The notes beneath the pieces were generated by a model that searched no databases, was not told where the DNA came from, and was given only the letters and a program-made list of their open reading frames with translations. Both the position numbers and the translations under genes were made by a program. A stretch of DNA of 64,000 nucleotides from Faecalibacterium sp. CAG:1138 (GTDB taxonomy: Bacteria > Bacillota > Clostridia > Christensenellales > CAG-917): positions 9,712-73,711 of the forward strand of contig HF988646.1 of the NCBI GenBank assembly GCA_000434675.1, given 5' to 3'. Position 1 is the stretch's first letter, and every line of letters begins with the position of its first letter. Positions 41,058 through 63,671 of the stretch are shown piece by piece.

Positions 41058-41062
41058 TTCGA

Positions 41063-41091: not shown

Positions 41092-41126
41092 CAAAAACGT
41101 ACATTTCACAAAAGGAGGAAGCAACA

Positions 41127-44445: not shown

Positions 44446-44453
44446 AAGTATAA

Positions 44454-44480
44454 GTCAGACAGCGTTTTGCTGTCTGATTT
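44454..44480 (+). terminator. Intrinsic terminator after the TrxR-like gene
   Basis: Hairpin TCAGACAGCGTTTTGCTGTCTGA followed by TTTT. Confidence 0.7.
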
Positions 44481-44567
44481 TATATTATCCCCAAAATTCC
44501 CCCTCTCGGATTGACTTTTCGCCCCCGCCGTGTTAATCTATAACTATCAATTTTTTCGAGGCGCAAA

Positions 44568-45434
44568 ATGAAGTGCTGGCTTGTTGTAAACGGCTTTTTG
44601 AATTCCAAAAAGTTTGAAGAAATATACGGTTTTTTATGCCGCAGCGGCAAAAAACTGGGCATAGACGTTGAGGTGAAAACGGGCGCCGATATTTTTTGCG
44701 GCGTAAACGAAGGCTTTTCGTCGTTTTCGCTTCCCGATTTCGTGCTTTTCTGGGACAAGGACGCGTACACCGCAAAGCGACTGGAAGAGGCGGGTTTACG
44801 CCTTTTCAATTCGGCCGCAAGCGTTGAGCTTTGCGACAACAAGTGCCTGACGGCTATGGCGCTTCGCGGCAAAGTGAAAACGCCCGAAACCTTTATAGCT
44901 CCGAAAACCTTCGAGGGCGTCGGCTTTAGCAATCTGACTTTTTTGGATAAAGCCGCCAAAAAGCTCGGCTATCCGATGGTTGTGAAGGAAGCGTACGGCT
45001 CGTTCGGCAAACAGGTTTATCTCGTCCGAAACCGCGCCGAGGCGGAAACGCTGGTGAAGAGCTTTGGCGCAAAGGATTTTCTGATGCAAAAGTTCGTCGA
45101 AACCAGCTGCGGCCGCGACGTAAGGATAAACGTCGTAGGGGAAAAGGTGGTTTCCGCGATGTATCGCCACAACGAAAACGATTTCCGCTCCAACGTAACA
45201 AACGGCGGCAAGGCCGAAAACTACCTGCCGACCGAGGAGCAAAAGACTGCGGCCATTGCCGCGGCAAAGGCTCTGGGGCTTGACTTTTGCGGCGTGGACG
45301 TGCTTTTCGGCGAGGGCGGCGAACCCGTGATTGCGGAGGTCAATTCCAACCCGCATTTCAAGTCCACGTTCGACTGCACGGGCATAGATATGAGCGAGCA
45401 GATTCTGTCTTACGTCAAGGAGCAACTAAAGTGA
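44568..45434 (+). CDS. RimK-family ATP-grasp ligase
   Basis: 288 aa with an ATP-grasp core (PMVVKEAYGSFGKQVYLV, RINVVG, FRSNVTNGG, CGVDVLF...EVNSNP). Confidence 0.8.
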   Translation: MKCWLVVNGFLNSKKFEEIYGFLCRSGKKLGIDVEVKTGADIFCGVNEGFSSFSLPDFVLFWDKDAYTAKRLEEAGLRLFNSAASVELCDNKCLTAMALRGKVKTPETFIAPKTFEGVGFSNLTFLDKAAKKLGYPMVVKEAYGSFGKQVYLVRNRAEAETLVKSFGAKDFLMQKFVETSCGRDVRINVVGEKVVSAMYRHNENDFRSNVTNGGKAENYLPTEEQKTAAIAAAKALGLDFCGVDVLFGEGGEPVIAEVNSNPHFKSTFDCTGIDMSEQILSYVKEQLK

Positions 45435-46225
45435 AAGGACTTTTGATATACGACGCCGTGGGTTTTGCGCGCAATTCCTGGTTTGCCAAAAGACTTGAAC
45501 AAGCCTGCAAAAAACAGGGTTTAGATTTAAATTTGTGCGTTTTAACGTCCGAAACAGTGCATTTGCCGCTTGTTCCCGATTTCGCGGCAGTGCGGGTGGC
45601 AAACCCCGCTCTTACTAAAAAACTTGAGGACGCAGGCGTCAGAACCTTCAACAATTATAAAACCTCTTTCGTCGCCAACGACAAGTGGAAGACCTATCTT
45701 TTCTTGAAGGAAAACGGTTTTCGCGTTATGGAAACAGAGGAGGGTTTTTCCGAAAAATTGCCGTTCCCGTACGTTTTGAAAAGCGTGGACGGCCACGGCG
45801 GAAGCGAAGTGTTTCTCGTCAAAACGAAAGAGGAGAAAAACAAGCTTAAGGCGGAATATTCTTCGGGCAGACGGTTTGTGAGTCAAAAGCTTTGCTCAAG
45901 CCCCGGCCGCGACCTCAGGGTTTACGTTTTGGGCGGCAAGGTGCTTGCCGGCGCGATGAGAAGTTCTGCTTCCGATTTTCGGAGCAACTATTCTTTGGGC
46001 GGCACGGCCGAAATCGTTCAGGTTCCGCAAAATATCGCATTCTCTGCCGAGCGGATAGCCGCCAAGCTTCAAAGCGATTTCGTGGGCGTCGATTTTATAT
46101 TTGACGGCGACGATGCCGTAGTCAACGAAGTTGAGGACGTAGTCGGCACCCGAATGCTTTACGCCCTTACCGACCTTGACGCCGCGGAAGAATACGCAAA
46201 ATATATTGCCAAAAATCTGAAATAG
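45431..46225 (+). CDS. RimK-family ATP-grasp ligase, second divergent paralog
   Basis: The GTG start overlaps the upstream stop (GTGA). PYVLKSVDGHGGSEVFLV, RVYVLGG, FRSNYSLGG, VGVDFIF...EVED. Confidence 0.75.
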   Translation: MKGLLIYDAVGFARNSWFAKRLEQACKKQGLDLNLCVLTSETVHLPLVPDFAAVRVANPALTKKLEDAGVRTFNNYKTSFVANDKWKTYLFLKENGFRVMETEEGFSEKLPFPYVLKSVDGHGGSEVFLVKTKEEKNKLKAEYSSGRRFVSQKLCSSPGRDLRVYVLGGKVLAGAMRSSASDFRSNYSLGGTAEIVQVPQNIAFSAERIAAKLQSDFVGVDFIFDGDDAVVNEVEDVVGTRMLYALTDLDAAEEYAKYIAKNLK

Positions 46226-46242
46226 GATTTATAAGGAGAAAT

Positions 46243-46326
46243 ATGAAACGCTGCATTGCATTTGCCGATGCAGCCGCAAAATCCGAAGTGATGGGACCTA
46301 CCGAAACTTTGCTTTTTGGAAAATAG
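46243..46326 (+). CDS. 27-codon ORF with a strong SD, directly after the ATP-grasp pair
   Basis: TAAGGAGAAATATG, encoding MKRCIAFADAAAKSEVMGPTETLLFGK. Coding status is unproven. Confidence 0.25.
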   Translation: MKRCIAFADAAAKSEVMGPTETLLFGK

Positions 46327-46478
46327 CTCCCACAAAACGGCCGACAACCTCAAAACATTGCAAACGATGTTCATCGTTTCCACAAGTTTGCTGTCACTTT
46401 TCGTCATTGCGCTTGCCGTAGTTCTCATCGTCCGGAAACGCCGCGGTCATCTCGCCGCCTAACCCAACCAACCCAAAA

Positions 46479-46505
46479 AGCGAACCCTCCGGTTCGCTTT
46501 TTTAT
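46479..46505 (+). terminator. Intrinsic terminator marking the end of core DNA
   Basis: AGCGAACCCTCCGGTTCGCT followed by a T-run. Base composition changes visibly right after it. Confidence 0.7.
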
Positions 46506-46652
46506 TTTGTCTTTGTTTTGTTTCAAGTCCGTTGCCTACAAAAAAAGACAATGCTGTCGCATTGTCTTTATTTTGTAAACAAACAACAAAAAGGAGCGTC
46601 TTTTTATGCCGAAAAGGGGGCAGGCGTCCACGGGGAATTGAACTTGAATATG

Positions 46653-46681
46653 TTGATTTTTGACGAATAATTTGGTATAAT
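46653..46681 (+). promoter_or_regulatory. Sigma-A type promoter for the Abi2/NTase pair
   Basis: TTGATT, a 17-nt spacer, then TATAAT. Confidence 0.5.
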
Positions 46682-46708
46682 AATAAAAAATGCGAAGAGG
46701 TAAAAATA

Positions 46709-47485
46709 TTGTTTAACGATTTAGATTTCAAAAAAATATTTCCTCTAATGACTTTTGAAAGCGGCGAAGAAGAAACGTGCAGAAAGTATATGGAAACGAG
46801 AGGAATATATCTTTATAAGCAAGTTTATGATGCGTTAGCTACTTGGATGCCTAATGTTAAAGAAATCAAATATAAACAATTTTCAAATTTGATTCGATAC
46901 GATAAGGGAATAAGGGATAAACTATATATTTATCTTGCTGCGGCGGAAGAATATCTGCGCAATATTATATTTGAAGAATTAGAAATAGATAATCGTCCCC
47001 AAGACAGTACTAAAATTAAACTTAATATTAGTGATTTAAGGACAAGAACTGTAGAGGAGCGAAATGAAGAATCGAATTTATATTATTACTCTTACGCAAA
47101 GAATTTTGATTTTGGACTGATTGAGAAAGTCTTTCAAAAGTTCAAACTTGCCGAAAAGTATGGCTTGATTCAATCGGATATTAAAGAAGTTCGGAAATTA
47201 TTGAGAAACAAAGTAATGCATCATAGCATGTTACTGTTATCTTGTTTTACGGATCGACAAGACATAGAAAAAGAAATAAAAACACTTGAAAAAGGCGTAG
47301 AAGCGTTGTATAGATTATTGCCAACATTAGAGCTTCGTGAAGGTTCGTCAGTTGATGGTCGCATTAGCGGCGGTTTAACGCAGGCAATTAACAAAAGCAA
47401 TTATCCTGATGGAGATATTATGAAAAAGCCGTATGATAACATAATTTGTTTACACAAGTTCAAAGACGGGAGATTTATATTATAA
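46709..47485 (+). CDS. Abi2 (AbiD/AbiF)-like HEPN-domain protein
   Basis: LIRYDKGIRDKLYIYLAAAEEYLRNIIF and the Rx4H motif RNKVMH (47204-47221) match the Abi_2/HEPN pattern. TTG start with an AGAGGT SD; ATG 46748 is an alternative start. Confidence 0.65.
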   Translation: MFNDLDFKKIFPLMTFESGEEETCRKYMETRGIYLYKQVYDALATWMPNVKEIKYKQFSNLIRYDKGIRDKLYIYLAAAEEYLRNIIFEELEIDNRPQDSTKIKLNISDLRTRTVEERNEESNLYYYSYAKNFDFGLIEKVFQKFKLAEKYGLIQSDIKEVRKLLRNKVMHHSMLLLSCFTDRQDIEKEIKTLEKGVEALYRLLPTLELREGSSVDGRISGGLTQAINKSNYPDGDIMKKPYDNIICLHKFKDGRFIL

Positions 47486-48144
47486 TGGAATATTTACATA
47501 GGAAAGACAAAAAGAAAACTTCAGCGCGAGAAGATTTTGAGAAAAGATTATTGCCGAAAGTGAGAGAATATTTGCGGAAAGATTTCGGTAAAAAGAAATG
47601 GGTGTTTAATGAATCCCTTGTCGGTAGTACAAAACGCAATTTAGTCTTGGTTGGGAACGAAGGCTTTGATATGGATTACCAATTACGGTTCGATTGTATT
47701 CCAGATAAATACTTAAAAGATGCCAAAGCTATGAAAGAATTGTTTCGAAATTATTTAAATAAAGCAAAGAAAGAACTCGGAATAGCCTTGACAGATTGCG
47801 AAGATTCTACACATGTGCTTACGATGAAGAAAATAGTTAATACAAAAGTTGATTATTCGTATGATATAGCAATTTTACGATTAAATGAATGCGGACAATA
47901 TGTAATTTTGAAGAATGAAAAGCAAGGCAGACAAGATGATTATCATTATGTACCGTTACCTGATTGTGGAGATTTTAACGAACGGTATAAAAAAGTGAAA
48001 ACTCAAGAAGCGTGGGCGTTGTTACGTGATAAATATAAAGTTAAAAAAGGAAAATATCAATACACAAATCAAGATGATAGACCTGCTTCATTTTCATTAC
48101 TGGGACAGGCGGTAAATGAAGTTATACAGAAATTAGAACTGTGA
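47485..48144 (+). CDS. Minimal Pol-beta-superfamily nucleotidyltransferase (MNT-like)
   Basis: G-S (47623-47628), 13 residues, then D-M-D (47668-47676), with a later YSYDIAIL strand carrying the third Asp. The ATG overlaps the upstream TAA (TAATG). Confidence 0.6.
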   Translation: MEYLHRKDKKKTSAREDFEKRLLPKVREYLRKDFGKKKWVFNESLVGSTKRNLVLVGNEGFDMDYQLRFDCIPDKYLKDAKAMKELFRNYLNKAKKELGIALTDCEDSTHVLTMKKIVNTKVDYSYDIAILRLNECGQYVILKNEKQGRQDDYHYVPLPDCGDFNERYKKVKTQEAWALLRDKYKVKKGKYQYTNQDDRPASFSLLGQAVNEVIQKLEL

Positions 48145-48235
48145 GAAGTTAAACAAAGGAGATTATCGTGCAAAAATCCTTTTTGTGCAATCGTTAAAGG
48201 CTTGCGACTTTTCAAAGCGAGTGAAGAACAAATCC

Positions 48236-49891
48236 CTACGGCGATGAGCGAAGAAACGACAAAAAGGGTAAACTGCCATAAAAACGGCAATTTACCCCTG
48301 TTTTGCATAGAAAAAGACACACGCGTCGGAGTTTTATACGCTCCTTTTGCGTGTGTCTTGATGGTGCCGTGTGGCATAATTTGTACGAACCTGTGTTAGA
48401 AGAAATAGCGGTTTTATCCGCCGTTTCTATTTCGCTTTCCGTTTTTGTGACGTGTTCTTTTGTTAATTTCAAGTGTTCGGGGCAGTCTGTAAAGTTGTAT
48501 GTAATCACTATCTCATCGTCATAAAGTATTACTTCCCGTATAAACGCATTAACAATTAGTTTCCGCACTTTTATATCGTCCGTGTTATCAAACACAAATT
48601 TACTCAAATACATTTCTATATCGTCCGCAGTTAAGTATGTGTAACTGCGGGCTTTTTCTTTAAGGATTTCCACGTCGTATTGCGATATTAGATTTTCAAG
48701 TTCGGTCAGACGGCTTTTCGTCGTTTCGGTGATTATGCCTTGCTCGATTGCCTTTACGATATTATTCTGTGCCTTTACCGCCTCGGCGCGTTTCTTTTCA
48801 ATAAATTTCAAAGCCGTGTTGTCTGCGGTTTCTTTTTTATGTACGTTGTATATGCTTTGCGCAATCTTCTTGATATTGTTCACGCTCGATAACATTTGAG
48901 TCGTTGCGTTTATCACCGTATCTTCGATAAACTGTTTTTGCACTCTGCCCATATTACATTTAGCACGCTTGCGACGTTTTGAAAGGCAAATATAGTAGTA
49001 ATGAATTGCACCCGTATGAGAAGTTCCGCTTTCACCGCCCATTCTGTGCTTACAATCTCCGCATATAAGTTTTCCCGAAAGGATATAGTCGAAAATCTCT
49101 TTTTTACGGCTCGGCGCAAGTTTGTTTTCTTCGTTTATTGCATTTACCTTGTTCCAAAGTTCGTCGGATATAATCCTCGGAAAGATGTTATCGTATGATT
49201 CCCCTTGGTGTTCGACAACGCCGGTATATCTCTTGTTGTGCAGAATGAAATACAAGTATTTGTGGTCTACGAGTTTTCCGTTCTTTCTGCGACAACCGCA
49301 TTCCTTGAATTTATCCGCAATGGCAACTGCTTTGTAGCCCTGCGAATACATCAAAAACGCATCTTCCACGATTTTGCTTTCGTATTCGTTCACAACGTAT
49401 TTTTTGTCAACGACGTCATAGCCGAAAATGTCTTGTCCACCCGTGGCTTTGCCTTTGCGCCAACTCTCTTTCAGTCCGCGATTGACTTTTTGCGTAAGTT
49501 CTTCCGAAAAGTATTGATTAAAACCTTCCAAAACGGTTTCCATCATACGACCTTCGGGGCTGTCCGTAAGGTTTTCCATTGCAGAGAGAATTGTTACGCC
49601 GTTATCTCGGAGCGTCTTCTTGTGTATTATCGATTCAAACTTGTTACGAGAAAATCGATCAAGTTTGTAAACGATAAGGTACTGCCACTCTTTGCGGCTG
49701 CTGTCTTTCAGCATTTTTTGAAATGCGACACGGTTGTCGTTCGTTCCCGTCATAGCGCGGTCGATATAGGTATCGACTATGAGTATATCGTTGTTTTGAG
49801 CATACTCTCGACACACACGAAGTTGTCCTTCAATAGATTGTTCGGTTTGGCTATCGCTAGAATAACGGGCATAAATAATTGCTTTTTTCAT
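48236..49891 (-). CDS. Large serine recombinase
   Basis: Resolvase domain AIIYARYSSDSQ...YKLDRFSRN, followed by recombinase and zinc-ribbon regions (CGDCKHRM...C). The last ~40 codons lie beyond a terminator-like hairpin, so the 3' end is uncertain. Confidence 0.9.
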   Translation of the reverse strand: MKKAIIYARYSSDSQTEQSIEGQLRVCREYAQNNDILIVDTYIDRAMTGTNDNRVAFQKMLKDSSRKEWQYLIVYKLDRFSRNKFESIIHKKTLRDNGVTILSAMENLTDSPEGRMMETVLEGFNQYFSEELTQKVNRGLKESWRKGKATGGQDIFGYDVVDKKYVVNEYESKIVEDAFLMYSQGYKAVAIADKFKECGCRRKNGKLVDHKYLYFILHNKRYTGVVEHQGESYDNIFPRIISDELWNKVNAINEENKLAPSRKKEIFDYILSGKLICGDCKHRMGGESGTSHTGAIHYYYICLSKRRKRAKCNMGRVQKQFIEDTVINATTQMLSSVNNIKKIAQSIYNVHKKETADNTALKFIEKKRAEAVKAQNNIVKAIEQGIITETTKSRLTELENLISQYDVEILKEKARSYTYLTADDIEMYLSKFVFDNTDDIKVRKLIVNAFIREVILYDDEIVITYNFTDCPEHLKLTKEHVTKTESEIETADKTAISSNTGSYKLCHTAPSRHTQKERIKLRRVCLFLCKTGVNCRFYGSLPFLSFLRSSP

Positions 49892-50150
49892 TTTGGTTAT
49901 TAACTCCTTTTAATTTTTTTGTCTTTCGACGGAAACCGAACAATCCGATTTTGGCGAACACAGCAAGGAAACAGTAAAAAATATAGGGAAATTTTTTGTG
50001 TCTTTATAGTTCTCACTATATTTTTTACCCTTGCGGTGGCTCGATTTGTGTTTGCATACATAAAAGTTTTCAGACCGAAATCGGATAGGCTTTCCGCGAG
50101 AAAGAAAAAACGTCTTGTTTCTTCCTTGTCCACAAGACTACAAGCCAAAG

Positions 50151-50167
50151 TCGCAAGTTTTTTGCGA
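50151..50167. promoter_or_regulatory. Palindromic operator-like site TCGCAA-N5-TTGCGA (copy 1)
   Basis: Exact 6-bp inverted arms with a 5-bp spacer, followed by GTTCGA. Confidence 0.5.
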
Positions 50168-50211
50168 GTTCGACTGAAATTTTCCAAAAAAATGAAAAAA
50201 ATTATTCAAAG

Positions 50212-50228
50212 TCGCAAGAAAGTTGCGA
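50212..50228. promoter_or_regulatory. Palindromic operator-like site TCGCAA-N5-TTGCGA (copy 2)
   Basis: Same arms and spacing, 61 bp after copy 1, followed by GTTTGA. Confidence 0.5.
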
Positions 50229-50267
50229 GTTTGACCGCTATCCTTTGGGCAAAAAGGAGAAACGGCT

Positions 50268-50456
50268 ATGAACAAGCAATATAAAATAACCACAATCGGC
50301 ACTCCGAACATTGAAAAGATGTCAACGGCGGAACAAAAATCGTTTTACAGCACTCTACTGTCTTTAATGACGGAATACTTCCGCAATGATGCCGAAGCAA
50401 AAAGCACAAACGCCCCCGACTGCTCCGAAAATGCAAACGACATAAACTCGGGGTAA
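50268..50456 (+). CDS. Small hypothetical protein (62 aa) of the island
   Basis: AAAGGAGA SD 7 nt upstream of the ATG. No recognisable domain. Confidence 0.4.
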   Translation: MNKQYKITTIGTPNIEKMSTAEQKSFYSTLLSLMTEYFRNDAEAKSTNAPDCSENANDINSG

Positions 50457-50632
50457 AATGAAAGTCCACGCACGGCGGAGAAAAAGGCGAAAGATCGCCA
50501 AGCGGGTTAGCGGCGACTTCGCCTTCCGCCCGTGCTTTCATTGTCCGATTTAGGTTTGTTTGTTCGGACAGAGGCGTGGCTTGTCTTCGGCGAGGCGCAG
50601 CCGAGCCGACTTGTATCAAGACAAACCACGCC
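50457..50632. ncRNA. Candidate structured RNA or DNA element: three consecutive GC-rich hairpins (family unknown)
   Basis: Hairpin 1 spans 50457-50542 with nested stems AATGAAAG/CTTTCATT, GCACGGCGGA/TCCGCCCGTGC, AGGCGAA/TTCGCCT and TCGCC/GGCGA. Hairpin 2 is TGTCCGA/TCGGACA (50542-50570). Hairpin 3 is GGCGTGGCTTGTCTT/AAGACAAACCACGCC (50573-50632). The strand is unresolved. Confidence 0.35.
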
Positions 50633-50644
50633 TAATTGCCAACG

Positions 50645-50661
50645 TCGCAAAAACCTTGCGA
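50645..50661. promoter_or_regulatory. Palindromic operator-like site TCGCAA-N5-TTGCGA (copy 3)
   Basis: Same arms and spacing, 47 bp upstream of the integrase ATG. Confidence 0.5.
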
Positions 50662-50707
50662 GTTTGAAAATTTGAAAAATCAATTAAAAATCATAGGAGA
50701 ATAAAAA

Positions 50708-51634
50708 ATGAAATATATAGAATGGCTGAATATTTGGCTTAACAATTACATAAAGCCAAGCGCAAAAGGACGCACATACATTCGTTATGAGCAACTAATA
50801 CGAACCCACATTGCCCCGAAAATCGGTGGTAACGACATAAACGACCTTACGCCTATCGTTTTGCAATCGTTTGTTACGGAATTATTGAATAGCGGTAATC
50901 TGAAAACCGGCAAAGAGTTATCGGCAAACTTTGTAAATATGGTCATATCTGTTATTCAGAACTCATTGAAAACGGCGCATTTAGTAGGTATCGCAAACGA
51001 ATATGTGGCAAACAAAATAAAACGCCCCAAGACAAAGGAAAAGCAAGTCGAATGTTTTTCCTGCCAGGAGCAGAAGAAAATTGAAAATTATGTATTGAAT
51101 AATGGCAAAGATAAATTATTCGGTGTTGTTTTATGCCTTTACACGGGTTTACGCATCGGCGAACTGCTCGCTTTAACGTGGGGCGATATTGATTTCGGCA
51201 ATGGTTTGCTTTTCGTTTCAAAAACGTGCCACGACGGAAACGACGGTATAAATCATATCCGCATCATCGACAGCCCGAAAACCGTTCATTCCCGCAGGGT
51301 AATACCGTTGCCGAAACAAATATTGTCCTTGCTTAAAGGCGTAAAAAAGCGTTCCAAATGCGAATATATCATAGCCGATAGCGATAAGCCCGTGTTCGTG
51401 CGCTCGTATCAACGAACTTTTGAACTACTATTGAAAAAACTAAACATTCCACATAAAGGCTTTCACTCCTTACGCCATACGTTCGCTACCCGTGCAATGG
51501 AATGTGGAATGGACGTTAAAACTCTTTCGGAACTGTTAGGACATAAAAATGCAACGATTACGCTTAACCGATATGCTCATTCCTTGCTTGAACACAAGGT
51601 AGATATGATGAATAGATTAGGAAAGTTGTTATAA
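50708..51634 (+). CDS. Tyrosine-type site-specific recombinase/integrase
   Basis: SAM-like N-terminal domain plus the catalytic residues: R in GLRIGELLAL, HSLRHTFAT, and Y in LNRYAH. Confidence 0.9.
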   Translation: MKYIEWLNIWLNNYIKPSAKGRTYIRYEQLIRTHIAPKIGGNDINDLTPIVLQSFVTELLNSGNLKTGKELSANFVNMVISVIQNSLKTAHLVGIANEYVANKIKRPKTKEKQVECFSCQEQKKIENYVLNNGKDKLFGVVLCLYTGLRIGELLALTWGDIDFGNGLLFVSKTCHDGNDGINHIRIIDSPKTVHSRRVIPLPKQILSLLKGVKKRSKCEYIIADSDKPVFVRSYQRTFELLLKKLNIPHKGFHSLRHTFATRAMECGMDVKTLSELLGHKNATITLNRYAHSLLEHKVDMMNRLGKLL

Positions 51635-51643
51635 ATCATAAAC

Positions 51644-51841
51644 AAAAAGTGTGCATCAAACAAAATAATTGATGCACACTTTTTAATTATTATAGCAAAT
51701 TTTTCTGCAAAAATCAAGGCGTATTGACTGCTTGTGCATGAATTGTTGTGATATTGCCGTTTTTTTTGATGCACGTTCAAGCCAAATGCGTACACGGAAT
51801 ATTTTGATTGATGCACTATCAGTGGCTGAAAAGTGCATCAA
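51644..51841. repeat. Five copies of a TTGATGCAC motif in both orientations between the integrase gene and the downstream operon
   Basis: GTGCATCAA at 51651-51659 and 51833-51841. TTGATGCAC at 51669-51677, 51766-51774 and 51808-51816. The first pair also forms the integrase terminator hairpin (51644-51684). Confidence 0.6.
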
Positions 51842-51935
51842 AAACAATGCGGCATTTAGTTTTTTATTTTAATTGCCTTCTATGTTTTATCGCTTAAACA
51901 GCCATGCTTTACTACTTTTGGCAAAGGATGAAGCA

Positions 51936-52934
51936 ATGAAGGTAGACTTCTCGAAGATAGAAATAAATTCCAAATATATCTATGCGTTGGATTCTCGGGT
52001 ACTGAAAATTCTTCTCAAAGATAAAACGACCAAGAAAAATATCATTTGGGCTACCGATGAATATTCAAATTTCGGTATTGGATATTCTGCTGATGACGAA
52101 ATTTATCCTACAGATATCGAAGGTATCACATCAATTATTACTCCGCGAGTGGCAAAAAGCAAAGAATCTCAAACGACGCGTATCCGCGGTATGGCAGAAG
52201 TTTTTACTCCGTCTTGGGTTTGCAATAAGCAAAACAACCTAATCGATTGCGCATGGTTCGGCAGAAACGACGTATTCAATGCAGAAATAGCAAACGGATG
52301 GCAAACGATTGACGCGAAAATCGACTTCCCCGATGCAAAAGGCAAATCGTGGCAGGATTACGTTAAGGCAAATCGCCTTGAAATTTCTTGCGGCGAAGCC
52401 CCTTATCTTACAAGCCGATACGACGCCGTTTCCGGCGAGATGATTCCCGTAAAAAACAGAATCGGATTTTTAGACAGAAAGTTGCGTGTTGTGTCCGAAA
52501 ACGCAGACTCCGAAAAGGAATGGTATTCATGGGCAAAAAAGGCTGTTCAGAGCGTTTACGGGTACGATTTGCAGGGCGACAACGTTTTGCTTGCCAGAGA
52601 AAATTTATTATTTACGTTTATCGAGCATTACGAAGATAAGTTTGACGTTCCCCCGATACCGGAATACTTAATCGAAATCGCAAAGATTTTGGCTTGGAAC
52701 ATTTTTCAGATGGACGGTATCAAATTTGTTGTTCCGGGCAGTTGCCGAAATAAAACCGTTAAAACCGAAACGCTGTTCGGCGTTGAAACCACTGAAGAAC
52801 GGTGTATCGGCTGCCGAACGAACGATAACGGAAAGCACAACGGCATTTATTGCAGAACTTACGATTGGGCTGCAAACGAATCCGTAGAGTTTTATTCGAG
52901 TTTTATAAGGGGGAAGCAAAATGGCAAAGTATGA
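51936..52934 (+). CDS. Methyltransferase-fold protein with a degenerate SAM loop and no NPPY motif (332 aa)
   Basis: Motif X-like AEVFTP (52194-52211) is present. LEISCGEAPYL (52377-52409) sits where LEPxCGxGxFL is expected. YGYDLQGDNVLLARENL is motif II-like. The C-terminus has a CIGC...H...C cluster. Start chosen at ATG 51936 (AAGGA SD). Confidence 0.6.
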   Translation: MKVDFSKIEINSKYIYALDSRVLKILLKDKTTKKNIIWATDEYSNFGIGYSADDEIYPTDIEGITSIITPRVAKSKESQTTRIRGMAEVFTPSWVCNKQNNLIDCAWFGRNDVFNAEIANGWQTIDAKIDFPDAKGKSWQDYVKANRLEISCGEAPYLTSRYDAVSGEMIPVKNRIGFLDRKLRVVSENADSEKEWYSWAKKAVQSVYGYDLQGDNVLLARENLLFTFIEHYEDKFDVPPIPEYLIEIAKILAWNIFQMDGIKFVVPGSCRNKTVKTETLFGVETTEERCIGCRTNDNGKHNGIYCRTYDWAANESVEFYSSFIRGKQNGKV

Positions 52935-55900
52935 CGTTGCAAGTTACAACTTGATCTACATATATGCTATCAACGATGAAACGCATAAAGGCTTGTTGAA
53001 AATCGGTCAGACTTCGTTTTCGTCCAAATACAGCATTGCACAGTTGCCACCGAATTGTTCTGCGCTGAACCAAAATGCACATGCACGAATACAGCAACAG
53101 ACAAAAACCGCTCTTGTTTCATACGATTTGCTCTATACGGAACTTGCCACAAGAACAATCACCATGGCGGATGGTTCAAAACAAATTCAGTCTTTCCAAG
53201 ACTATGACGTCCACGACGTGATTTTGCAGTCGGGCTACTCGGCTGTAAAATTTGTTGAAAGCGGCAAGCAAAGCGAATGGTTCAAAATCGATTTATCGTC
53301 TGCAAAAGCCGCTATTTCGGCGGTAAAAGAAGGTAAAGCGGTTCTTCCCGACGCAAAAACTTCCGTAGTCGTTGCACAAAAGCAAAAAATCACGCTCCGG
53401 AACGAACAGAAAGAAAACGTTGAAAAAACGATAGATATTTTCAAGCGTTACGACACAATGCTATGGAACTGCAAAATGCGTTACGGCAAGACGGTTACCG
53501 CTTACGAACTTATCAAACGTCAGCATTATCAAAAAGTAATCGTCATTACTCACCGCCCCGCAGTAGAGGACGGTTGGGGAACAGACCATGATTTGATGTT
53601 TGCAGGCACAAATCATCTTTTCATCGACAAAACAAATGGTTCTGTCGATTACGACAGCGCAATAGATGCTGATAACGATTTCAAATTAAAACAAACGGTT
53701 CAATCTCAAACGCCGTTTGTCTATTTTGCATCTATTCAAGATTTGAGAGGTTCCAAACGAGTCGGTGGAAAATACAACAAAAACAATGCCGTTTTCGATA
53801 TGGACTGGGATTTGCTTATCATTGACGAAGCCCATGAAGGAACGTCAACCGATTTAGGCGATGCCGTTATAAAAACGTTACGAAAGCCAAACACAAAGGT
53901 ATTGCTATTGTCTGGTACGCCGTACAACATAATGAGCGAGTTTGACGAAAACAAGTACACGTGGACTTACGTCGACGAACAAAAAGCCAAGGCGGAATGG
54001 GAAGAAAATCATCCAAACGAGCGAAATCCTTACGAAGAACTCCCGAAGATGAACATTTTTACCTTCGACTTGTCCGAGCAAATGCCGACGTCCTATCGTT
54101 TCGTTACCGAAGATTCGGCATTCAATTTCCGTGAATTTTTCCGCACATGGACGGGCGACGTAGAAAAAGATTTCAGAATTATTCCCGAAGGTAAATCCGT
54201 CGGCGATTTCGTATACGAAGATGACGTATACAACTTTTTGTCGCTCATTTCAAGCGATAGTCAAGACAGCAACTATCCGTTTTCGACGGAAGAATACAGA
54301 GATATGTTTGCGCACACATTCTGGATTGTTCCCGGTGTAAAAGAAGCAAAAGCATTAAGCGCATTGATTCAGCGTCATCCGAATTTCAAGGATTTTGAAG
54401 TTGTTAATATTGCGGGTGACGGCGACGAAGAAAAACCTTACAGCGAAGCACTTGCCTTGGTTCGCAGTTCAATCAAATCATTTGCGAAAACAATCACGAT
54501 TTCTTGCGGAAAACTCACAACCGGTGTTACCGTTCGAGAATGGTCTGCCGTAATGATGCTTTCGGGTTCGTCGTCAACTTCCGCATCGGGATATATGCAA
54601 GCCATTTTCCGTGTTCAATCTCCGGGATATATCAACGGCAGGCAAAAGAAAAACTGTTATGTTTTCGATTTTGCTCCAGATAGAACGCTCAAAGTCATTG
54701 CCGAAGTACACAGAGTTACCAACAAGGGCTTAAAAGACGACGAAAAGGCAAAGAAGGCTCTTGGCGAGTTTATCAATTTCTGCCCGATCATTTCCGTTGA
54801 AGGCACGGTTATGCGCTCTTACAACGTGGACGAAATGATGCGTCAAATCAAACGCATATCCGTTGACGCGGCAATCAATAGCGGTTTTGACGACGATACG
54901 ATTTATCTTTCCGATGCAGGAATGAAAATAAGCCAATTTGATCAGGACATCTTGCGCAAACTTGCCGACGTGGTAACACCTCAAAAGAAAGGCAAAAAAC
55001 AAACTGACGTTGTAATTTCTGACAGCGGTATGACCGATGAACAGCATAAGTTGGCAGACAAAGCAAAGCGTAAGCCGAAAAAAGAGCTTACCGAAGAAGA
55101 AAAGGCTGCACTTGAACTTTATAAAAAGCAAAAAGAAGAACAAAAGAAAATGTTCAATCTCTTGCGTGCTGTTTCGATACGTTTGCCGCTCTTGTTCTAT
55201 GGTGCGGACGCCGACATTACCGAAATCATTCACCTGAAAGACTTCGTGCAAATCGTCGACGACGAATCTTGGGGCGAATTTATGCCAAAAGGTTTACGCA
55301 AGGATCTGTTCCTCGACATTTTGAGGTATTACGATGAAGACGTTGTAATCGGCGCGGGACTTCGTATCAGAAAAATGGCAAAAGCCGCCGACGAATTGCC
55401 GCCTACTTACAGAGCAAAGCGTATTGTCGAAATAATGTCAAAATTCAAAAATCCCGACAAGGAAACCGTCCTTACGCCTTGGCGCGTCGTCAATATGCAC
55501 ATGGGCAATACATTGGGCGGATACAACTTCTTTGACGAAGATTTTCAAAAGGAATTGGACGAACCGCGAGTAATAGACAACGGCGAAATCACTTCGGATA
55601 TTTTCCTAAATACCGATGCGAAAGTGCTTGAAATGAACTCAAAGTCGGGCTTATATCCGCTTTATCTGGCGTACTCGTTCTATATGCTCAACGTTTCAGG
55701 CAAAGAAAAAGATTTGCCGCTCGAAACGATGCAAAAAATATGGTTCGACACCTTGGACAAGCATATTTTCGTGCTTTGCAAAACAAAAATGGCTCGTATG
55801 ATTACCATTCGTACACTTGCGGGCTATTCAAATAAAACTGTTCATGCGATATATTTGACAAAACTTGTTGAAGAACGCATGAAGGACTTGGATCGTCTTT

Positions 55901-56904
55901 CCAAAAAACTGACGAACCCCGACACTTGGAATATCGGAGGCGATAGAATGAAATTTGACGCTGTTGTCGGCAACCCGCCGTATCAACTTACAAAAAACGG
56001 GAACAATGAGCAAATCCACTTTGCTTTTCTTGAACTTGCTTATAATACGACAGCCCATTATGTTTCTTTGATCCAACCGTTAAATTGGCTCAATAATGGT
56101 AAATTGCTCAATAAAGTTGTCGATCACGTTGTTTCATTGTTCAGATATTCGGATAGTAAGAGTGTGTTCTTAACGGTACAAATTCCGTCGGGCGTAGGCT
56201 ATTCTTTGATTGATAAACAAAATCAATACAGCGGAACTCAAATTGTCGAAGGCAATAAAAAGTACTACGGAAAATTAACCGGAAATTATAATTCCGACGA
56301 TTTGCGTATCGTTGATGAAGTCCATTTTACAAAATCAATTTATGATAGAATTTCAGATTATGTAGGTCATAGTAATGAGGATAAATCATTGCCGATTAAT
56401 CCCAACGGAGAGATTAAAATTTGGTATAAGAAAGAAAACGGGAAAGCCGGGAAAAGCGAATGGTATTCCGTTGATCGAAAATCAATCCCCGATGGTTCGA
56501 TTATCGATGAATGGAAGGTGATGATTAGCAATGACGGACACGCAGAAGCGACAGATACAAAGCCGCAAAATATTTTTAACAACTCGGCTATCGCTCTGCC
56601 CCCAAAATACATAACAACGAATAGACCAATATTGTTAAAAGCAAAAGACAAGTCTGAAGCGGAATTTATTGCGAAATATGCAAATACAAAATTTTTTAGA
56701 CGGTTATTGCATGTTGAAGCAAAGTCAAATTCCATTGCAAAAGGCACCTATAAGTTGGTTCCTGATATAACCGAATTTATCGATAAATATGACGGCATAG
56801 AAGATTTGGACACATTTTTGGCAAAGTTCTTCAATTTGAGTGAAGAAACTATAAATGATATTAACAAAAGAATTTTGCCCAAAACAACAAATAACGGATT
56901 GTGA
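52921..56904 (+). CDS. 1327-aa fusion: T5orf172/GIY-YIG-like N-terminus, SF2 (ResIII/DEAH) helicase, Eco57I-like N6-adenine methylase module and a C-terminal putative specificity region
   Basis: YIYAINDETHKGLLKIGQT...SEWFKI; Walker A MRYGKT (GKT at 53485-53493); DEAH (53824-53835); LLLSGTPYN; QAIFRVQSP; VLEMNSKSGLYPLY; FDAVVGNPPYQ (NPPY at 55972-55983). Overlaps the upstream gene by 14 nt. Confidence 0.85.
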   Translation: MAKYDVASYNLIYIYAINDETHKGLLKIGQTSFSSKYSIAQLPPNCSALNQNAHARIQQQTKTALVSYDLLYTELATRTITMADGSKQIQSFQDYDVHDVILQSGYSAVKFVESGKQSEWFKIDLSSAKAAISAVKEGKAVLPDAKTSVVVAQKQKITLRNEQKENVEKTIDIFKRYDTMLWNCKMRYGKTVTAYELIKRQHYQKVIVITHRPAVEDGWGTDHDLMFAGTNHLFIDKTNGSVDYDSAIDADNDFKLKQTVQSQTPFVYFASIQDLRGSKRVGGKYNKNNAVFDMDWDLLIIDEAHEGTSTDLGDAVIKTLRKPNTKVLLLSGTPYNIMSEFDENKYTWTYVDEQKAKAEWEENHPNERNPYEELPKMNIFTFDLSEQMPTSYRFVTEDSAFNFREFFRTWTGDVEKDFRIIPEGKSVGDFVYEDDVYNFLSLISSDSQDSNYPFSTEEYRDMFAHTFWIVPGVKEAKALSALIQRHPNFKDFEVVNIAGDGDEEKPYSEALALVRSSIKSFAKTITISCGKLTTGVTVREWSAVMMLSGSSSTSASGYMQAIFRVQSPGYINGRQKKNCYVFDFAPDRTLKVIAEVHRVTNKGLKDDEKAKKALGEFINFCPIISVEGTVMRSYNVDEMMRQIKRISVDAAINSGFDDDTIYLSDAGMKISQFDQDILRKLADVVTPQKKGKKQTDVVISDSGMTDEQHKLADKAKRKPKKELTEEEKAALELYKKQKEEQKKMFNLLRAVSIRLPLLFYGADADITEIIHLKDFVQIVDDESWGEFMPKGLRKDLFLDILRYYDEDVVIGAGLRIRKMAKAADELPPTYRAKRIVEIMSKFKNPDKETVLTPWRVVNMHMGNTLGGYNFFDEDFQKELDEPRVIDNGEITSDIFLNTDAKVLEMNSKSGLYPLYLAYSFYMLNVSGKEKDLPLETMQKIWFDTLDKHIFVLCKTKMARMITIRTLAGYSNKTVHAIYLTKLVEERMKDLDRLSKKLTNPDTWNIGGDRMKFDAVVGNPPYQLTKNGNNEQIHFAFLELAYNTTAHYVSLIQPLNWLNNGKLLNKVVDHVVSLFRYSDSKSVFLTVQIPSGVGYSLIDKQNQYSGTQIVEGNKKYYGKLTGNYNSDDLRIVDEVHFTKSIYDRISDYVGHSNEDKSLPINPNGEIKIWYKKENGKAGKSEWYSVDRKSIPDGSIIDEWKVMISNDGHAEATDTKPQNIFNNSAIALPPKYITTNRPILLKAKDKSEAEFIAKYANTKFFRRLLHVEAKSNSIAKGTYKLVPDITEFIDKYDGIEDLDTFLAKFFNLSEETINDINKRILPKTTNNGL

Positions 56905-56933
56905 TTATACAGACACCACACTTCTAAAGCATA

Positions 56934-56962
56934 TTGACTTGTAATCTTTATTGTTGTATAAT
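56934..56962 (+). promoter_or_regulatory. Consensus sigma-A promoter for the OLD/PARIS-like gene
   Basis: TTGACT, a 17-nt spacer, then TATAAT. Confidence 0.65.
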
Positions 56963-56985
56963 TATACTAAACAATGGGGAGATAA

Positions 56986-58725
56986 ATGATGTCAAAAGTA
57001 CTCTTAGAAAAAGTTAAATTAGAATATTTCAAGTGTTATCAAGAAACAACGGTATTATTTAAAGATTTAACAATTGTTGTGGGCGAAAACAATGCTGGTA
57101 AATCTTGTTTAATTGAAGCTCTCAGATTGGTGTCAAATGCGGCGCAAAATGCTTATAGAAAAAATTATCGAGAACCGCCCAAAGAGTTAGAGCTTATGGC
57201 TTCACTGAGAGGATTTGTAATTGATACGAAAAAACTGAGAATTGATTTGGAAAGTGTTGTCTACTTTTATGACAAAAATAGAAATGCCAAGATAACAGCC
57301 TTTTTTAATGATAAATCAAGAATTGAAATTTATTTGAACGAATATTGTGCTTTCGCTGTAATATTTGATAAACAAAGAAAAATGATTACTAGCAATAAGA
57401 AAGCAAAAGAATTGGGAGTTGATAAAATGCTACGTATTATGCCACAAATCGGCACAATACGAGAACAAGAAAAATATCTATCAAAAGAAACAGTGTTTGA
57501 TGATAAAGATACTTATCTATCATCTTTACACTTTAGAAATGAGATTTATCTATGGAAAGATTTGTATTATTCAGATTTCAAGCAATTAGCAGAAAGCACA
57601 TGGGACAGTTTGGAGATATCAGATCCTGAGTTCAATCAAACAGATAACATTATGAGCCTTGTTGTAAGTGATAATCGTTTTTCTGCGGAGATTGGTAAGA
57701 TGGGAAGCGGTTTACAACTTTGGCTTCAAATTATGTGGTTCCTTTCACGTTCTAAAGATTGTGAAGTTATTATCTTAGATGAACCGGATATTTACATGCA
57801 TTCCGAAATGCAACGCAAAATTCTTGAAATAGTTAGAGAAAAGTTTCCACAAGTAATTATTGCAACACATTCGTTAGAAATTATCTCACGAGTTGATCCC
57901 GAGTATATTCTTGAAATAAATAAGAAAGACAAAAAACTAAAATTTGCAAGCGATGTTTCTTCTGTTCAAAAAATTATAGATGATATCGGTGGCGTTTCAA
58001 ATTTAGCTCTTATAAATTTGGGGCGTCAGCGTAAATGTTTATTTGTAGAGGGATGCGATGTCGAAATACTAAATAGATTTAATGAAATTCTGTATGGAAA
58101 ACAAATATGCTTGCCAACATTTTCTTTTGGGGGTTTTAGCAAGATATCCAACTTATACGGAGCGGCTGACTTGTTTTATAATGAAACGAGTAATCAAATT
58201 AAATGTTTCGCAATTGCGGATAAAGACTATAGGGATGAAATTGTCGTAGAGAAGATCCAGAAACAAGCTGTTGATAAACATCTGGCATTGTACATTTGGG
58301 CTAAAAAAGAAATTGAAAATTATCTGATCGATCCTCAAATCCTATTTGAGCTAATCCCTAATACATTTCAAATTCAATATCTAGATTTTTTGACTGAATT
58401 TGAAGCATTGGTAGAAGCGGAAAAAGATGACGTGTTTGATTCATATGCAACCCAATATAGAATTGATTGTGGTTATTTTAGTGACGAAAAGCAATGGGAT
58501 ATTGCTACATGCAATCAAAAAGCACGCGATTATATGTCAAAACACTGGATTTCGTTAGACACCAAACTTGCTTTAATCGGAGGTAAAAAATTTTTAGGAA
58601 CAATTAGGCGGTATTTTCAAGATAACTACAAAATTTCATTATCAAACAAAAAAATTATTGATCAATACACTGTTGATAAAATTCCAAAAGAAATAAAGGA
58701 TGTTTTAACAGCTCTTAACCAATAA
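56986..58725 (+). CDS. OLD-family/PARIS-like fusion: ABC-type ATPase (AAA_15/21-like) plus a Toprim/DUF4435-like C-terminal domain
   Basis: Walker A GENNAGKS, signature MGSGLQ, Walker B IILDEPD, and H-loop IATHS. These are followed by CLFVEGCDVEIL...FAIADKDYRD...KKEIENYLI, a Toprim-like acidic pattern. Confidence 0.7.
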   Translation: MMSKVLLEKVKLEYFKCYQETTVLFKDLTIVVGENNAGKSCLIEALRLVSNAAQNAYRKNYREPPKELELMASLRGFVIDTKKLRIDLESVVYFYDKNRNAKITAFFNDKSRIEIYLNEYCAFAVIFDKQRKMITSNKKAKELGVDKMLRIMPQIGTIREQEKYLSKETVFDDKDTYLSSLHFRNEIYLWKDLYYSDFKQLAESTWDSLEISDPEFNQTDNIMSLVVSDNRFSAEIGKMGSGLQLWLQIMWFLSRSKDCEVIILDEPDIYMHSEMQRKILEIVREKFPQVIIATHSLEIISRVDPEYILEINKKDKKLKFASDVSSVQKIIDDIGGVSNLALINLGRQRKCLFVEGCDVEILNRFNEILYGKQICLPTFSFGGFSKISNLYGAADLFYNETSNQIKCFAIADKDYRDEIVVEKIQKQAVDKHLALYIWAKKEIENYLIDPQILFELIPNTFQIQYLDFLTEFEALVEAEKDDVFDSYATQYRIDCGYFSDEKQWDIATCNQKARDYMSKHWISLDTKLALIGGKKFLGTIRRYFQDNYKISLSNKKIIDQYTVDKIPKEIKDVLTALNQ

Positions 58726-58782
58726 TCAACTATGTATAAAAATAGGCGGATAGATTTTCAAATTTATCCGTCTGTTTTATTG

Positions 58783-59406
58783 TTAAAAGCGATTTGTTGC
58801 AAGCAAATATTTTTTACGAATACTGTTTTGTCTGCGCCAGATTGTAGTGCGGTTGACGTTTAATATTCTGCCGATTTGTAGCATTGTAAACCCTGCCATA
58901 AGAATGGAAAGCGTTTCGTATTCAGCGGCGGTGAGTTTCATCTTTGATATAAGCCCGTCAACGGCTATATAATCGTTTTTCTGCTCGTCATCGAGTATTG
59001 TTTCAGACTCACTCGTAATTCGCTCGTCAAGGCTTATTGTGTTTGCCATATAGCGTGTGTATTGCTTTTGCAAATAATTATCGGCGCAACGATAACAAGC
59101 ACTTTTAATTGTAACAACCTTTCCGTATTTCGTAGTATAGTTATCACCGAGTTTCTCACCTATATGTTGGCAAAGAAACAGCATTGCCTCTTGCGCAATG
59201 TCGTATGCGTTTGAAAACGGCGAATAATCGTCTTTTGAGCGATTCATATCTCTAAATAGCCCTTTGTATAGATAATGCAAATCCTTGCCTGAACGGACGA
59301 TTACTGTTTTAATACAGGTCAAGGCGATAACTTCGCCCATTTTCTGTACGTTTTCTGCCGAGATAACCATATCGTTATCCAAAATGCCTTTGTTTACTTC
59401 TTTCAT
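58783..59406 (-). CDS. Sigma-70 region-4/LuxR-type HTH regulator typical of integrative elements
   Basis: C-terminal LTAAEYETLSILMAGFTMLQIGRILNVNRTTIWRRQNSIRKK. GGAGG SD. Confidence 0.6.
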   Translation of the reverse strand: MKEVNKGILDNDMVISAENVQKMGEVIALTCIKTVIVRSGKDLHYLYKGLFRDMNRSKDDYSPFSNAYDIAQEAMLFLCQHIGEKLGDNYTTKYGKVVTIKSACYRCADNYLQKQYTRYMANTISLDERITSESETILDDEQKNDYIAVDGLISKMKLTAAEYETLSILMAGFTMLQIGRILNVNRTTIWRRQNSIRKKYLLATNRF

Positions 59407-59772
59407 TGTATTTTACCTCCGATTTAATTCGCCTTTCGGCAAAAACGGAAGTAGCACCGGGGAAAGATAGAAGTTTTTTACCTTATAGTTGGTTAGACGG
59501 AAGTCAACGAACAGCAAAAAATATTACGTTATAATCGACAATTTCAAAGTTTTCGGTAAAAATTTTTGCCGTTGACTTGCGCTTTTCACTGTGCTACAAA
59601 CGTAAACGAAAGGCGATAAATCGGACGGCAAAACGGTATAGAAAAACCGAGCGTTTAGAACACTCGGTTAAAGGTTGTAATGTATTTATAGTTTGATTTT
59701 AAGTCCGAAATAATCTCTTGTAAAAAACAAAACGAACTCAAGATTTTTTCTCGGGTTCGTTTTATTCTTGTT

Positions 59773-59859
59773 TGGTGCGGGCAACAGGACTTGAACCTGC
59801 ACAGCCTTGCGACCATAAGAACCTGAATCTTACGCGTCTGCCAATTCCGCCATGCCCGC
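59773..59859 (-). tRNA. tRNA-Leu (anticodon CAG), class II with a long variable arm
   Basis: Minus-strand sequence GCGGGCATGGCGGAATTGGCAGACGCGTAAGATTCAGGTTCTTATGGTCGCAAGGCTGTGCAGGTTCAAGTCCTGTTGCCCGCACCA was folded by hand. The anticodon loop is TTCAGGT. Confidence 0.9.
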
Positions 59860-63668: not shown

Positions 63669-63671
63669 CTT

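Follow-up and report, generated by a model that had tools for sequence, protein, structure and literature searches.

The 64,000-nucleotide stretch of Faecalibacterium sp. CAG:1138 analysed here (contig HF988646.1, positions 9,712–73,711; hereafter the window) carries a genuine, mobile, defence-carrying island next to its tRNA-Leu(CAG) gene. The low-GC segment 46576–59772 is best described as a stack of two site-specific integrative elements at the 3′ end of this tRNA gene: an 11.4-kb element, E_S, probably integrated by its large serine recombinase (LSR), and a 1.8-kb element, Y, which appears to be older; a tyrosine recombinase encoded within E_S would serve to invert a promoter. The probability of this reading is estimated at about 0.8. 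The principal features are the following, with the strand given where one applies.

46515–46575: ancestral tRNA-Leu trailer (the 61-bp unit), core DNA, delimited by empty-site comparison
46544–46569: terminator hairpin in the trailer (fold −17.3 kcal/mol, z = −5.4)
46576–48361: element Y, 1.8 kb, without a recombinase, its ends shared with an element of contig L006
48236–49891, minus strand: LSR open reading frame (ORF), 551 aa, with Resolvase, Recombinase and Zn_ribbon_recom domains
48362–48367, minus strand: distal copy of the direct repeat GCACCA (TGGTGC on the plus strand), the attachment (att) core of E_S, inside the 3′ end of the LSR ORF
48362–59772: element E_S, 11.4-kb integrative island between the tRNA-Leu CCA end and element Y
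50708–51634, plus strand: tyrosine recombinase, 308 aa, Phage_integrase and SAM_3
51651–51816: inverton, with 17-nt repeats identical at 16/17 positions
51873–58725, plus strand: cargo slot, occupied by a methylase-led defence operon
59712–59772, minus strand: tRNA-proximal end of E_S (AACAAGAATAAAACGAACC...), hairpin with U-run (fold −20.5 kcal/mol, z = −6.4)
59773–59778, minus strand: proximal copy of GCACCA, the last six bases of tRNA-Leu(CAG)
59773–59859, minus strand: tRNA-Leu(CAG), predicted by ARAGORN

Ten long conspecific contigs were fetched by the exact sequence of a neighbouring core protein, the c-di-AMP receptor; fetched contigs and loci used for comparison bear L-numbers (L001 etc.). 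E_S is missing from L001, L002 and L004–L010. In L002, L005, L009 and L010 the reverse complement of 46575–46515 comes immediately after the tRNA CCA, which means that the island is absent there and that its left junction lies at 46575/46576. The 61-bp trailer consists of the terminator hairpin followed by GGCAA(C/A)GGACTTGAAAC and is duplicated in several strains. An earlier note, made from the sequence alone, had placed the island between a core terminator (46479–46505) and the end of tRNA-Leu; the tRNA side, 59772/59773, was placed correctly, but the empty sites move the left border to 46575/46576. The comparison with related genomes that it suggested does reveal empty sites, conspecific strains lacking the segment and the region not being conserved core. 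The compositional shift is likewise upheld by the GC profile, which runs at ~0.50 in the left core and then at 0.32–0.44 across 46–60 kb. The GC content is 0.50 for the core (40000–46575), 0.338 for Y and 0.392 for E_S; the low-GC span is 46576–59772, and 46506–46575 is core DNA.

The direct repeat of E_S is the 6-bp GCACCA at 59773–59778 and 48362–48367, and homology among conspecific and cross-species copies ends exactly at the distal one. The earlier statement that the expected direct repeat is missing holds for the far border, where there is none, but overlooked the copy at 48362–48367. The junctions are alike across sites, reading ...GCACCA/AACAAGAATAAAACGAACC on the tRNA side and ...CACACGGCACCA/host hairpin on the far side (the slash marks the junction). 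In other species, E_S-type units follow tRNA-Lys(CTT), tRNA-Leu (GAG, CAA, TAA, CAG, TAG and AAG) and tRNA-Arg. The copy in L034, from another species, contains a 97%-identical serine recombinase in a unit with a truncated sigma-like gene, a tyrosine recombinase and a 62-aa gene, and sits after tRNA-Lys(CTT) with the junctions ...GTGCACCA/AACAAGAATAAAACGAACC and ...CACACGGCACCA/terminator hairpin.

When species-representative genomes were scanned with residues 1–508 of the serine recombinase, 77 loci were obtained, nearly all from uncultured Clostridia, Christensenellales or Christensenellaceae metagenome-assembled genomes. In the fetched loci taken together there are 26 copies of the proximal-end motif, 20 of which abut a predicted tRNA 3′ end (18 Leu with six anticodons, one Lys and one Arg). 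GCACCA precedes the motif in 21/26, and a serine recombinase in the same orientation lies 1.7–10.6 kb downstream in 21/26. Among the 21 elements with both the proximal end and the serine recombinase, 12 have no tyrosine recombinase. Scanning metagenomes for the distal end yielded 33 copies with at least 20 unrelated flanks after GCACCA, mostly tRNA-trailer-like hairpins.

The small islands of the E_S family would be placed precisely at the CCA end of a GCACCA-ending tRNA gene, mostly tRNA-Leu, ahead of its terminator, with the LSR at the far end acting as the integrase and the tRNA-proximal end supplying a new terminator hairpin. The tRNA-facing hairpins are predicted to fold at −20.5 (E_S), −22.9 (Y) and −17.3 kcal/mol (native trailer), and the element hairpins with their U-run would replace the displaced tRNA terminator. 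For tRNA-Leu itself, there is a 12/12 promoter match at 59902–59874.

The LSR reported in the earlier note is confirmed by Pfam, with E-values of 1.9e-29 (Resolvase), 1.3e-14 (Recombinase) and 5.6e-11 (Zn_ribbon_recom). Its catalytic-serine motif is intact, with the N-terminus YARYSSDSQ, and it matches the PHROG 95 integrase at 1.7e-101. Residues 1–508 (48368–49891) are conserved; the repeat supplies the following two codons, and Y the final 41 together with the stop (48236–48361). This is consistent with the coverage and variable length of the homologues: among the matches listed, most of 120 cover 89–97% of the query (mostly ~93%), and their lengths are ~350–654 aa, mostly 506–654. The homologues lose similarity at one common codon. 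As the GCACCA core lies in the last LSR codons, the C-terminal tail of the protein changes with each insertion site.

The LSR is accompanied by two further genes of E_S.

58783–59406, minus strand: sigma-70/HTH-like protein, 207 aa
50268–50456, plus strand: 62-aa ORF of no known family

The sigma-like gene is a conserved companion of the LSR across the element family, homologues of 30–36% identity adjoining LSRs of 54–68% identity in relatives. A sigma/HTH regulator had been reported earlier and a gene of this kind is present, but its matches all fall below curated cut-offs (TIGR02937, 21 bits; PHROG 1740 sigma factor, 4e-7). The 62-aa gene was called in L003, L011, L012, L014, L016, L021–L025, L034 and L035 and was found by tblastn at 79–92% identity in L036–L042 and L089. 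It travels with the LSR and is therefore a candidate directionality factor or regulator.

Integration is assigned to the LSR on the basis of the identical ends at many tRNAs, the 12/21 elements without a tyrosine recombinase, the flanks numbering at least 20, the companion sigma-like gene and the hairpins; most likely, this enzyme inserted E_S at the tRNA CCA end. Precise junctions, a very short common core (GCACCA for E_S, CA for Y) and presence/absence polymorphism, as expected of LSR elements, are all observed.

Several unusual copies of the family were encountered. L130/L134 contain a miniature copy behind a tRNA 3′ fragment, with ~1.7 kb between its proximal end and its recombinase end. 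In L131/L150, two copies have their proximal end after non-tRNA sequence (...ACACACGCA/), possibly representing secondary sites. L151, an IMG/VR contig, carries a 3.7-kb copy at tRNA-Leu(CAG).

Element Y, which separates E_S from the trailer, contains the following.

46653–46681, plus strand: promoter-like site
46709–47485, plus strand: Abi_2-like gene (21.7 bits, below the cut-off of 25.6)
47446/47485–48144, plus strand: gene for a 219/232-aa protein without family match
48290–48361, minus strand: hairpin at the tRNA-facing end (fold −22.9 kcal/mol)

The ends of Y (48163–48367 and 46576–46643) are 91–93% identical to those of the 5.5-kb triple-serine-recombinase element which occupies the same tRNA in L006. 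This contig reads tRNA...GCACCA/TCAAGACACAC..., which corresponds to the window from 48361 leftward, and the far end of its element corresponds to window 46643–46576. The L006 junction GCACCA/TCAAGACAC is an unoccupied E_S site beside a Y-type element. The junctions of Y share 'CA' alone. Y has L006-type ends and, in place of the recombinases, the Abi_2-like and 219/232-aa genes. It would be an older element without a recombinase of its own, displaced from the tRNA upon the arrival of E_S.

The 219/232-aa protein, like the 62-aa and 78-aa proteins of E_S, has no match in Pfam, NCBIfam or PHROGs, and the 232-aa form has none in PADLOC either. One stretch of the 219/232-aa protein, VGNEGFDMDYQL, has a G-x-x-G...D-x-D-like pattern that recalls small nucleotidyltransferases. 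If this resemblance holds, Y would, in our own reading, carry a toxin-antitoxin pair of the HEPN/nucleotidyltransferase type.

The tyrosine recombinase gene of E_S is followed by the invertible promoter, which is organized as follows.

51651–51667: left inverted repeat (IRL), GTGCATCAAACAAAATA
51668–51799: invertible core, 132 bp
51717–51689, minus strand: TG-extended promoter TTGATT-17-TATAAT, in the core
51800–51816: right inverted repeat (IRR), TATTTTGATTGATGCAC
51833–51841: further GTGCATCAA site

All five GTGCATCAA copies of the 64-kb window lie within 51651–51841, against 0.53 expected. The stop codon of the tyrosine recombinase ends 16 nt before IRL, an adjacency kept in all relatives examined. 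In the window, the promoter points to the minus strand, away from the cargo, and the switch is therefore OFF for the cargo. Orientations were read from contigs encoding an identical tyrosine recombinase: the inverton is OFF in L011, L013 and L017–L020, as in the window; in L012 and L015 it is ON, the promoter facing the methylase. Contig L014 breaks off precisely at IRL, and L016, a chimera, folds back through the switch. Another species has a homologue of 79% identity between the core genes LysR and YhbY, with no tRNA or serine recombinase nearby. An operon of an EcoRI-type methylase and GmrSD follows it behind a like switch, and this switch too is found in both orientations.

The occurrence of the inverton in both orientations and of the homologue at a non-mobile locus means that the tyrosine recombinase is best read as a dedicated invertase and not as an integrase. 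Most likely, it inverts the promoter and thereby phase-varies the cargo. The sole obvious cargo promoter appears to be the one on the invertible segment, and flipping of the 132-bp segment by the adjacent tyrosine recombinase would switch the entire operon ON or OFF in some of the cells.

A 38-nt segment of Y upstream of the Abi_2-like gene (46653–46690), which contains its fixed promoter, is 87% identical, in inverted orientation, to the invertible promoter of E_S (51680–51717). This suggests a promoter family common to Y and E_S. The two segments were also considered as transposon ends or as the borders of a 5-kb invertible segment, and this was rejected because the copy in Y is a second, fixed promoter and no contig has the 5-kb segment inverted.

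Runs of N in species-representative genomes were noticed at three places: L044 8143–8319, exactly on the invertible core; L050 7170–7458, adjoining the tyrosine recombinase; and L074 1336–1474, just beyond the serine recombinase end. They are either scaffold gaps arising from heterogeneity or masking in the collection.

Downstream of the switch, the cargo slot of the window contains three genes, whose products would act in defence, and is closed by a hairpin.

51873/51936–52934, plus strand: methyltransferase (PADLOC MTase_II, 1e-117)
52921–56904, plus strand: 1327-aa fusion of a doubtful T5orf172 domain, a ResIII helicase and an Eco57I-type methylase, with domain-level matches only
56986–58725, plus strand: 579-aa OLD/PtuA/AriA-like ABC ATPase
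58740–58780: hairpin at the distal edge of the slot, between the cargo and the sigma-like gene

The defence-like nature of the cargo, as reported earlier, stands with the MTase_II, ResIII+Eco57I fusion and OLD/PtuA/AriA-like ATPase matches, the Abi_2 match of Y being sub-threshold. The 579-aa ATPase, which has no partner gene, gives matches of 1e-14 to 1e-24 to the NsnB, AriA, PtuA, GajA and Old models, and a PDB sequence search with the 1327-aa protein returned no match. The 58740–58780 hairpin is common to the window, L003 and L012 despite their differing cargo, and the boundaries of the swap are IRR (51816/51817) and this shared terminator near 58740. At least five different methylase-led restriction/defence operons were found in the slot.

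Window, L011, L013: methylase, 1327-aa helicase-methylase and ABC ATPase
L042, L044: methylase and ~1327-aa protein, with no ATPase match
L012, L015: methylase, 1352-aa protein and DUF3644
L003, L038: EcoRI-type methylase, GmrSD/HNH and 640–669-aa protein
L036: C5 methylase, a protein of no assigned family and GmrSD
L037, L039, L089: C5 methylase, NgoFVII-type nuclease and Z1-domain protein

Most likely, the operons are exchanged by way of the conserved flanks of the slot, and the tyrosine recombinase might also help cassette exchange at IRR. In agreement with the earlier note, no capsid, tail, replication, conjugation, relaxase or packaging families were detected with Pfam, NCBIfam and PHROGs among the nine main genes and the 78-aa ORF. 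None of the marker genes of integrative and conjugative elements (ICEs), integrative and mobilizable elements or phage satellites is present among these ORFs. E_S would be able to move between cells.

The earlier note had described the tyrosine recombinase as an integrase. A Phage_integrase/SAM_3 recombinase is indeed present, and it could be the integrase of the whole island, the LSR then being a resolvase or a passenger, or serving as integrase for a nested element only. Integration into tRNA genes is usually performed by tyrosine integrases, the 6–7-bp identical core GCACCA(A) fits the overlap region of a tyrosine recombinase, and the protein matches the PHROG 1 integrase at 3.7e-62. This alternative is, however, unlikely. 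The 12/21 related elements without a homologue of the tyrosine recombinase have the same ends and target, and other homologues occur at non-mobile loci; that is, the enzyme does not co-vary with the island ends. The att core is positioned inside the LSR gene, where homologue similarity stops. Moreover, the tyrosine recombinase family is found island-free between core genes, by invertons in both orientations, and neither Pfam nor NCBIfam detects an arm-binding domain. The comparative evidence points to promoter inversion as the role of the tyrosine recombinase and to the LSR as the integrase.

It may also be supposed that nothing in the interval between tRNA-Leu and the ATP-grasp genes has site-specific mobility, and that defence genes are swapped there by homologous recombination through the flanks, the recombinases being irrelevant cargo. 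The interval is a hotspot with many unrelated contents: a FokI-like gene in L005, acetyltransferase islets in L001 and L007, the 5.5-kb element with three serine recombinases in L006, and a window-type backbone with other cargo in L003. The internal cargo of E_S, too, was probably exchanged via conserved flanks. However, an element with base-identical ends is found after different tRNAs in different species with at least 20 unrelated flanks, a pattern that flank-mediated homologous exchange cannot produce, and this explanation is therefore very improbable.

Least probable is the model of a single composite island reaching from the core terminator to the tRNA, with an inverted tRNA fragment as a relic att site left by inversion or by integration in the opposite orientation: the 17-mer in question (46520–46536) resembles the T-arm/acceptor part of the tRNA (15/16, one gap) and lies less than 60 bp from the compositional boundary, but it occupies the same tRNA-relative place in the island-free L002, L005, L009 and L010 and both duplicated trailers, its match is weak (p ~0.01), the real junction is 46575/46576, and the proper 6-bp direct repeat of E_S is elsewhere. 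The resemblance reported in the earlier note does exist, with 15/16 aligned positions identical and one gap. Its local alignment score of 13 is equalled by 29/5000 segment shuffles and 23/1817 window tiles (p ~0.006–0.013), and there is no ungapped match with three mismatches or fewer. In unoccupied strains the 17-mer lies 36–52 nt downstream of the tRNA CCA, and it is found in both copies of the duplicated trailer. Since it sits in the trailer at empty sites, it belongs to the target site and is not the border repeat or att relic of the island that had been proposed; the inverted tRNA-like fragment is ordinary conserved host trailer DNA of no particular meaning.

Most of the 'empty' strains are not pristine: they retain remnants of 106–175 bp whose last part is a directly oriented copy of the tRNA 3′ end, CAAGTCCTGCC(T)CCCGCACCA, and behind which the trailer is repeated; decayed elements thus litter the tRNA-Leu site in other strains. 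No such copy is present in the window, where a search with the tRNA 3′ 18-mer and the 21-nt tRNA-like repeat of other strains returned the tRNA alone. The suggestion of nested or decayed elements was therefore close to what is seen, namely two tandem elements here and decayed remnants in other strains, whereas the inversion offered as an alternative is unnecessary.

Several observations weigh against the picture of two stacked elements with a division of labour between the recombinases. The historical relation between Y and the L006 element is suggested by only ~270 bp of common ends, and the Abi_2 and sigma assignments are under curated cut-offs. A tRNA target and an identical core of 6–7 bp would more typically be expected of tyrosine integrases, the poor conservation of the right half of the target is unusual for an LSR, and no recombination directionality factor was identified. 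In a third species (the P0063 context), the tyrosine recombinase stands by a methylase/SMODS/S_4TM operon with a degenerate switch, which has one orientation in 5/5 contigs; this context was set aside as uninformative on inversion.

Circular excision products, which the earlier note had led one to look for, add to these points. The predicted attP is ...TTATGCCACACGGCACCAAACAAGAATAAAACGAACC..., the predicted E_S circle junction ...AAATTATGCCACACGGCACCAAACAAGAATAAAACGAACCCGAG... and the restored site ...GTTGCCCGCACCATCAAGACACACGC.... Two exact-pattern scans of assembled metagenome and viral collections found no copy of the exact attP, which is a weak negative as assemblies rarely capture circles. 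The broader scan gave integrated copies, with 0/33 distal ends joined to a proximal end.

The components of E_S are all of known kinds: tRNA-associated islands, short-repeat LSRs, invertible promoters, phase-variable restriction-modification (RM) and tandem accretion. Their combination, an LSR lineage aimed at the tRNA CCA end together with a standard slot for inversion-controlled defence operons, is unusual. E_S is similar to the Islander/TIGER-type islands, which are integrated by tyrosine integrases, in its insertion at a tRNA 3′ end with the tRNA left intact, tandem arrays and remnants, defence cargo and variability among strains. These islands, however, have a repeat of a 15–50-nt tRNA fragment, whereas E_S has 6 bp, is inserted at the very CCA end and is assigned to an LSR. 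Indeed, no displaced tRNA 3′ fragment of at least 15 nt with three mismatches or fewer is present in the window as a distal direct repeat.

Staphylococcal cassette chromosome (SCC) composite islands display tandem stacking with partners that lack recombinases. The best NCBIfam matches of the LSR are CcrB and CcrA, but its CcrB score of 105.6 bits is far below the equivalog cut-off of 900; the LSR is consequently not a Ccr and, with a tRNA as target in place of rlmH, SCC is an analogy only. Together with the streptococcal ICEs, which have single or triplet serine integrases, the SCC elements with Ccr represent the LSR elements of Firmicutes, and E_S resembles these in having a Resolvase+Recombinase+Zn-ribbon integrase at its edge and a very short repeat (2–8 bp). 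Among the serine-integrase elements of Firmicutes there is precedent both for such repeats and for an att site within the integrase gene, the latter being reported for rumA-targeting ICEs (PMC4701971). In contrast to the LSR elements of Firmicutes, E_S targets a tRNA end and not a protein-coding gene, has no conjugation module, and its right target half is hardly conserved.

The switch of E_S is similar to known invertons (fimS with FimB/FimE, Bacteroides capsule promoters and the RecV switches of Clostridioides difficile), where short inverted repeats surround a promoter, a tyrosine recombinase is adjacent and both orientations occur. It differs from them in its motif, GTGCATCAA, and in controlling whole methylase-led operons that are the cargo of a mobile element in a conserved exchange slot. 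Recombinase-driven or stochastic ON/OFF variation is also a property of phase-variable RM systems, such as hsdS shufflons ('epigenetic invertons') and phasevarions (PMC7672463, PMC9881135); these shuffle segments of the specificity gene or use repeat slippage, while in E_S the promoter is inverted and the coding sequences are untouched. The tycheposons of Prochlorococcus are likewise small cargo elements at tRNA genes in tandem arrays, a minority of which encode an LSR (27/937; 10.1101/2020.12.28.424599). They differ in their unrelated hosts, in that many have replication genes, and in the lack of an inverton-controlled slot.

No description of the E_S element family or of the recombinase-inverton-methylase module was found in the literature searched. 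It is conceivable, at somewhat short of even odds, that E_S represents an undescribed LSR lineage which is specialised in tRNA CCA ends (core GCACCA), recognizes its target mainly through the tRNA half-site and serves as a platform for spreading phase-variable defence operons among uncultured human-gut Clostridia. It was stated in 2015 that LSRs are not known to target tRNA genes (PMC4383910), and E_S points to a serine-integrase family which uses tRNA ends, a target class long thought exclusive to tyrosine integrases. The relaxed right half-site may interest integrase engineers. A defence island that seemed to be one unit is resolved base by base into stacked elements through comparison of strains and species. 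Whole restriction/defence operons of abundant uncultured gut Clostridia would be both mobile and reversibly switched by promoter inversion, which bears on phage-host dynamics, methylome heterogeneity and the breaks in metagenome assemblies at such loci.

The region between the LSR and the tyrosine recombinase contains, besides the 62-aa gene, several smaller features, the repeats being found by repeat search.

50048–50284, plus strand: 78-aa ORF of no known family
50146–50173, 50207–50234 and 50640–50667: three operator-like palindromes (AAGTCGCAA-N5-TTGCGAGTT)
50573–50587 and 50618–50632: 15-bp near-perfect inverted repeat, GGCGTGGCTTGTCTT and AAGACAAACCACGCC, with a 30-nt spacer

The palindromes precede the small ORFs and the tyrosine recombinase. 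A 57–61-bp promoter/operator segment recurs before unrelated cargo genes in L001, L007 and L003. The homology with the L001/L007 islets begins within the spacer of the 15-bp repeat, and many metagenome contigs stop there. A second inversion at this repeat, near 50,600, was considered in view of the clustered contig ends and rejected, because every spanning contig is collinear and the repeated 57–61-bp segment explains the breaks.

Two variable places were noticed in the surroundings of the island. To the left, a small ORF between the ATP-grasp gene and the core terminator (~46243–46446, plus strand) contains a polymorphic indel of ~185 bp (46250–46434), which L004, L008 and L010 have and which is deleted in L001, L002, L005, L006 and L009. 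To the right of the tRNA, 61476–64000 and the DNA past the window end form a second variable low-GC locus (GC 0.41), which contains a Type III RM pair, res (730 aa) and part of mod, replaced in some conspecific strains by ABC-transporter genes. Another invertible promoter, with GTGCATCAA-type repeats, belongs to mod (L003, L004, L008, L009 and L010, positions ~4700–5060); L003 and L008 have it ON, and L004, L009 and L010 have it OFF. As L008 has the mod inverton without the island, another invertase paralogue must exist in its genome.

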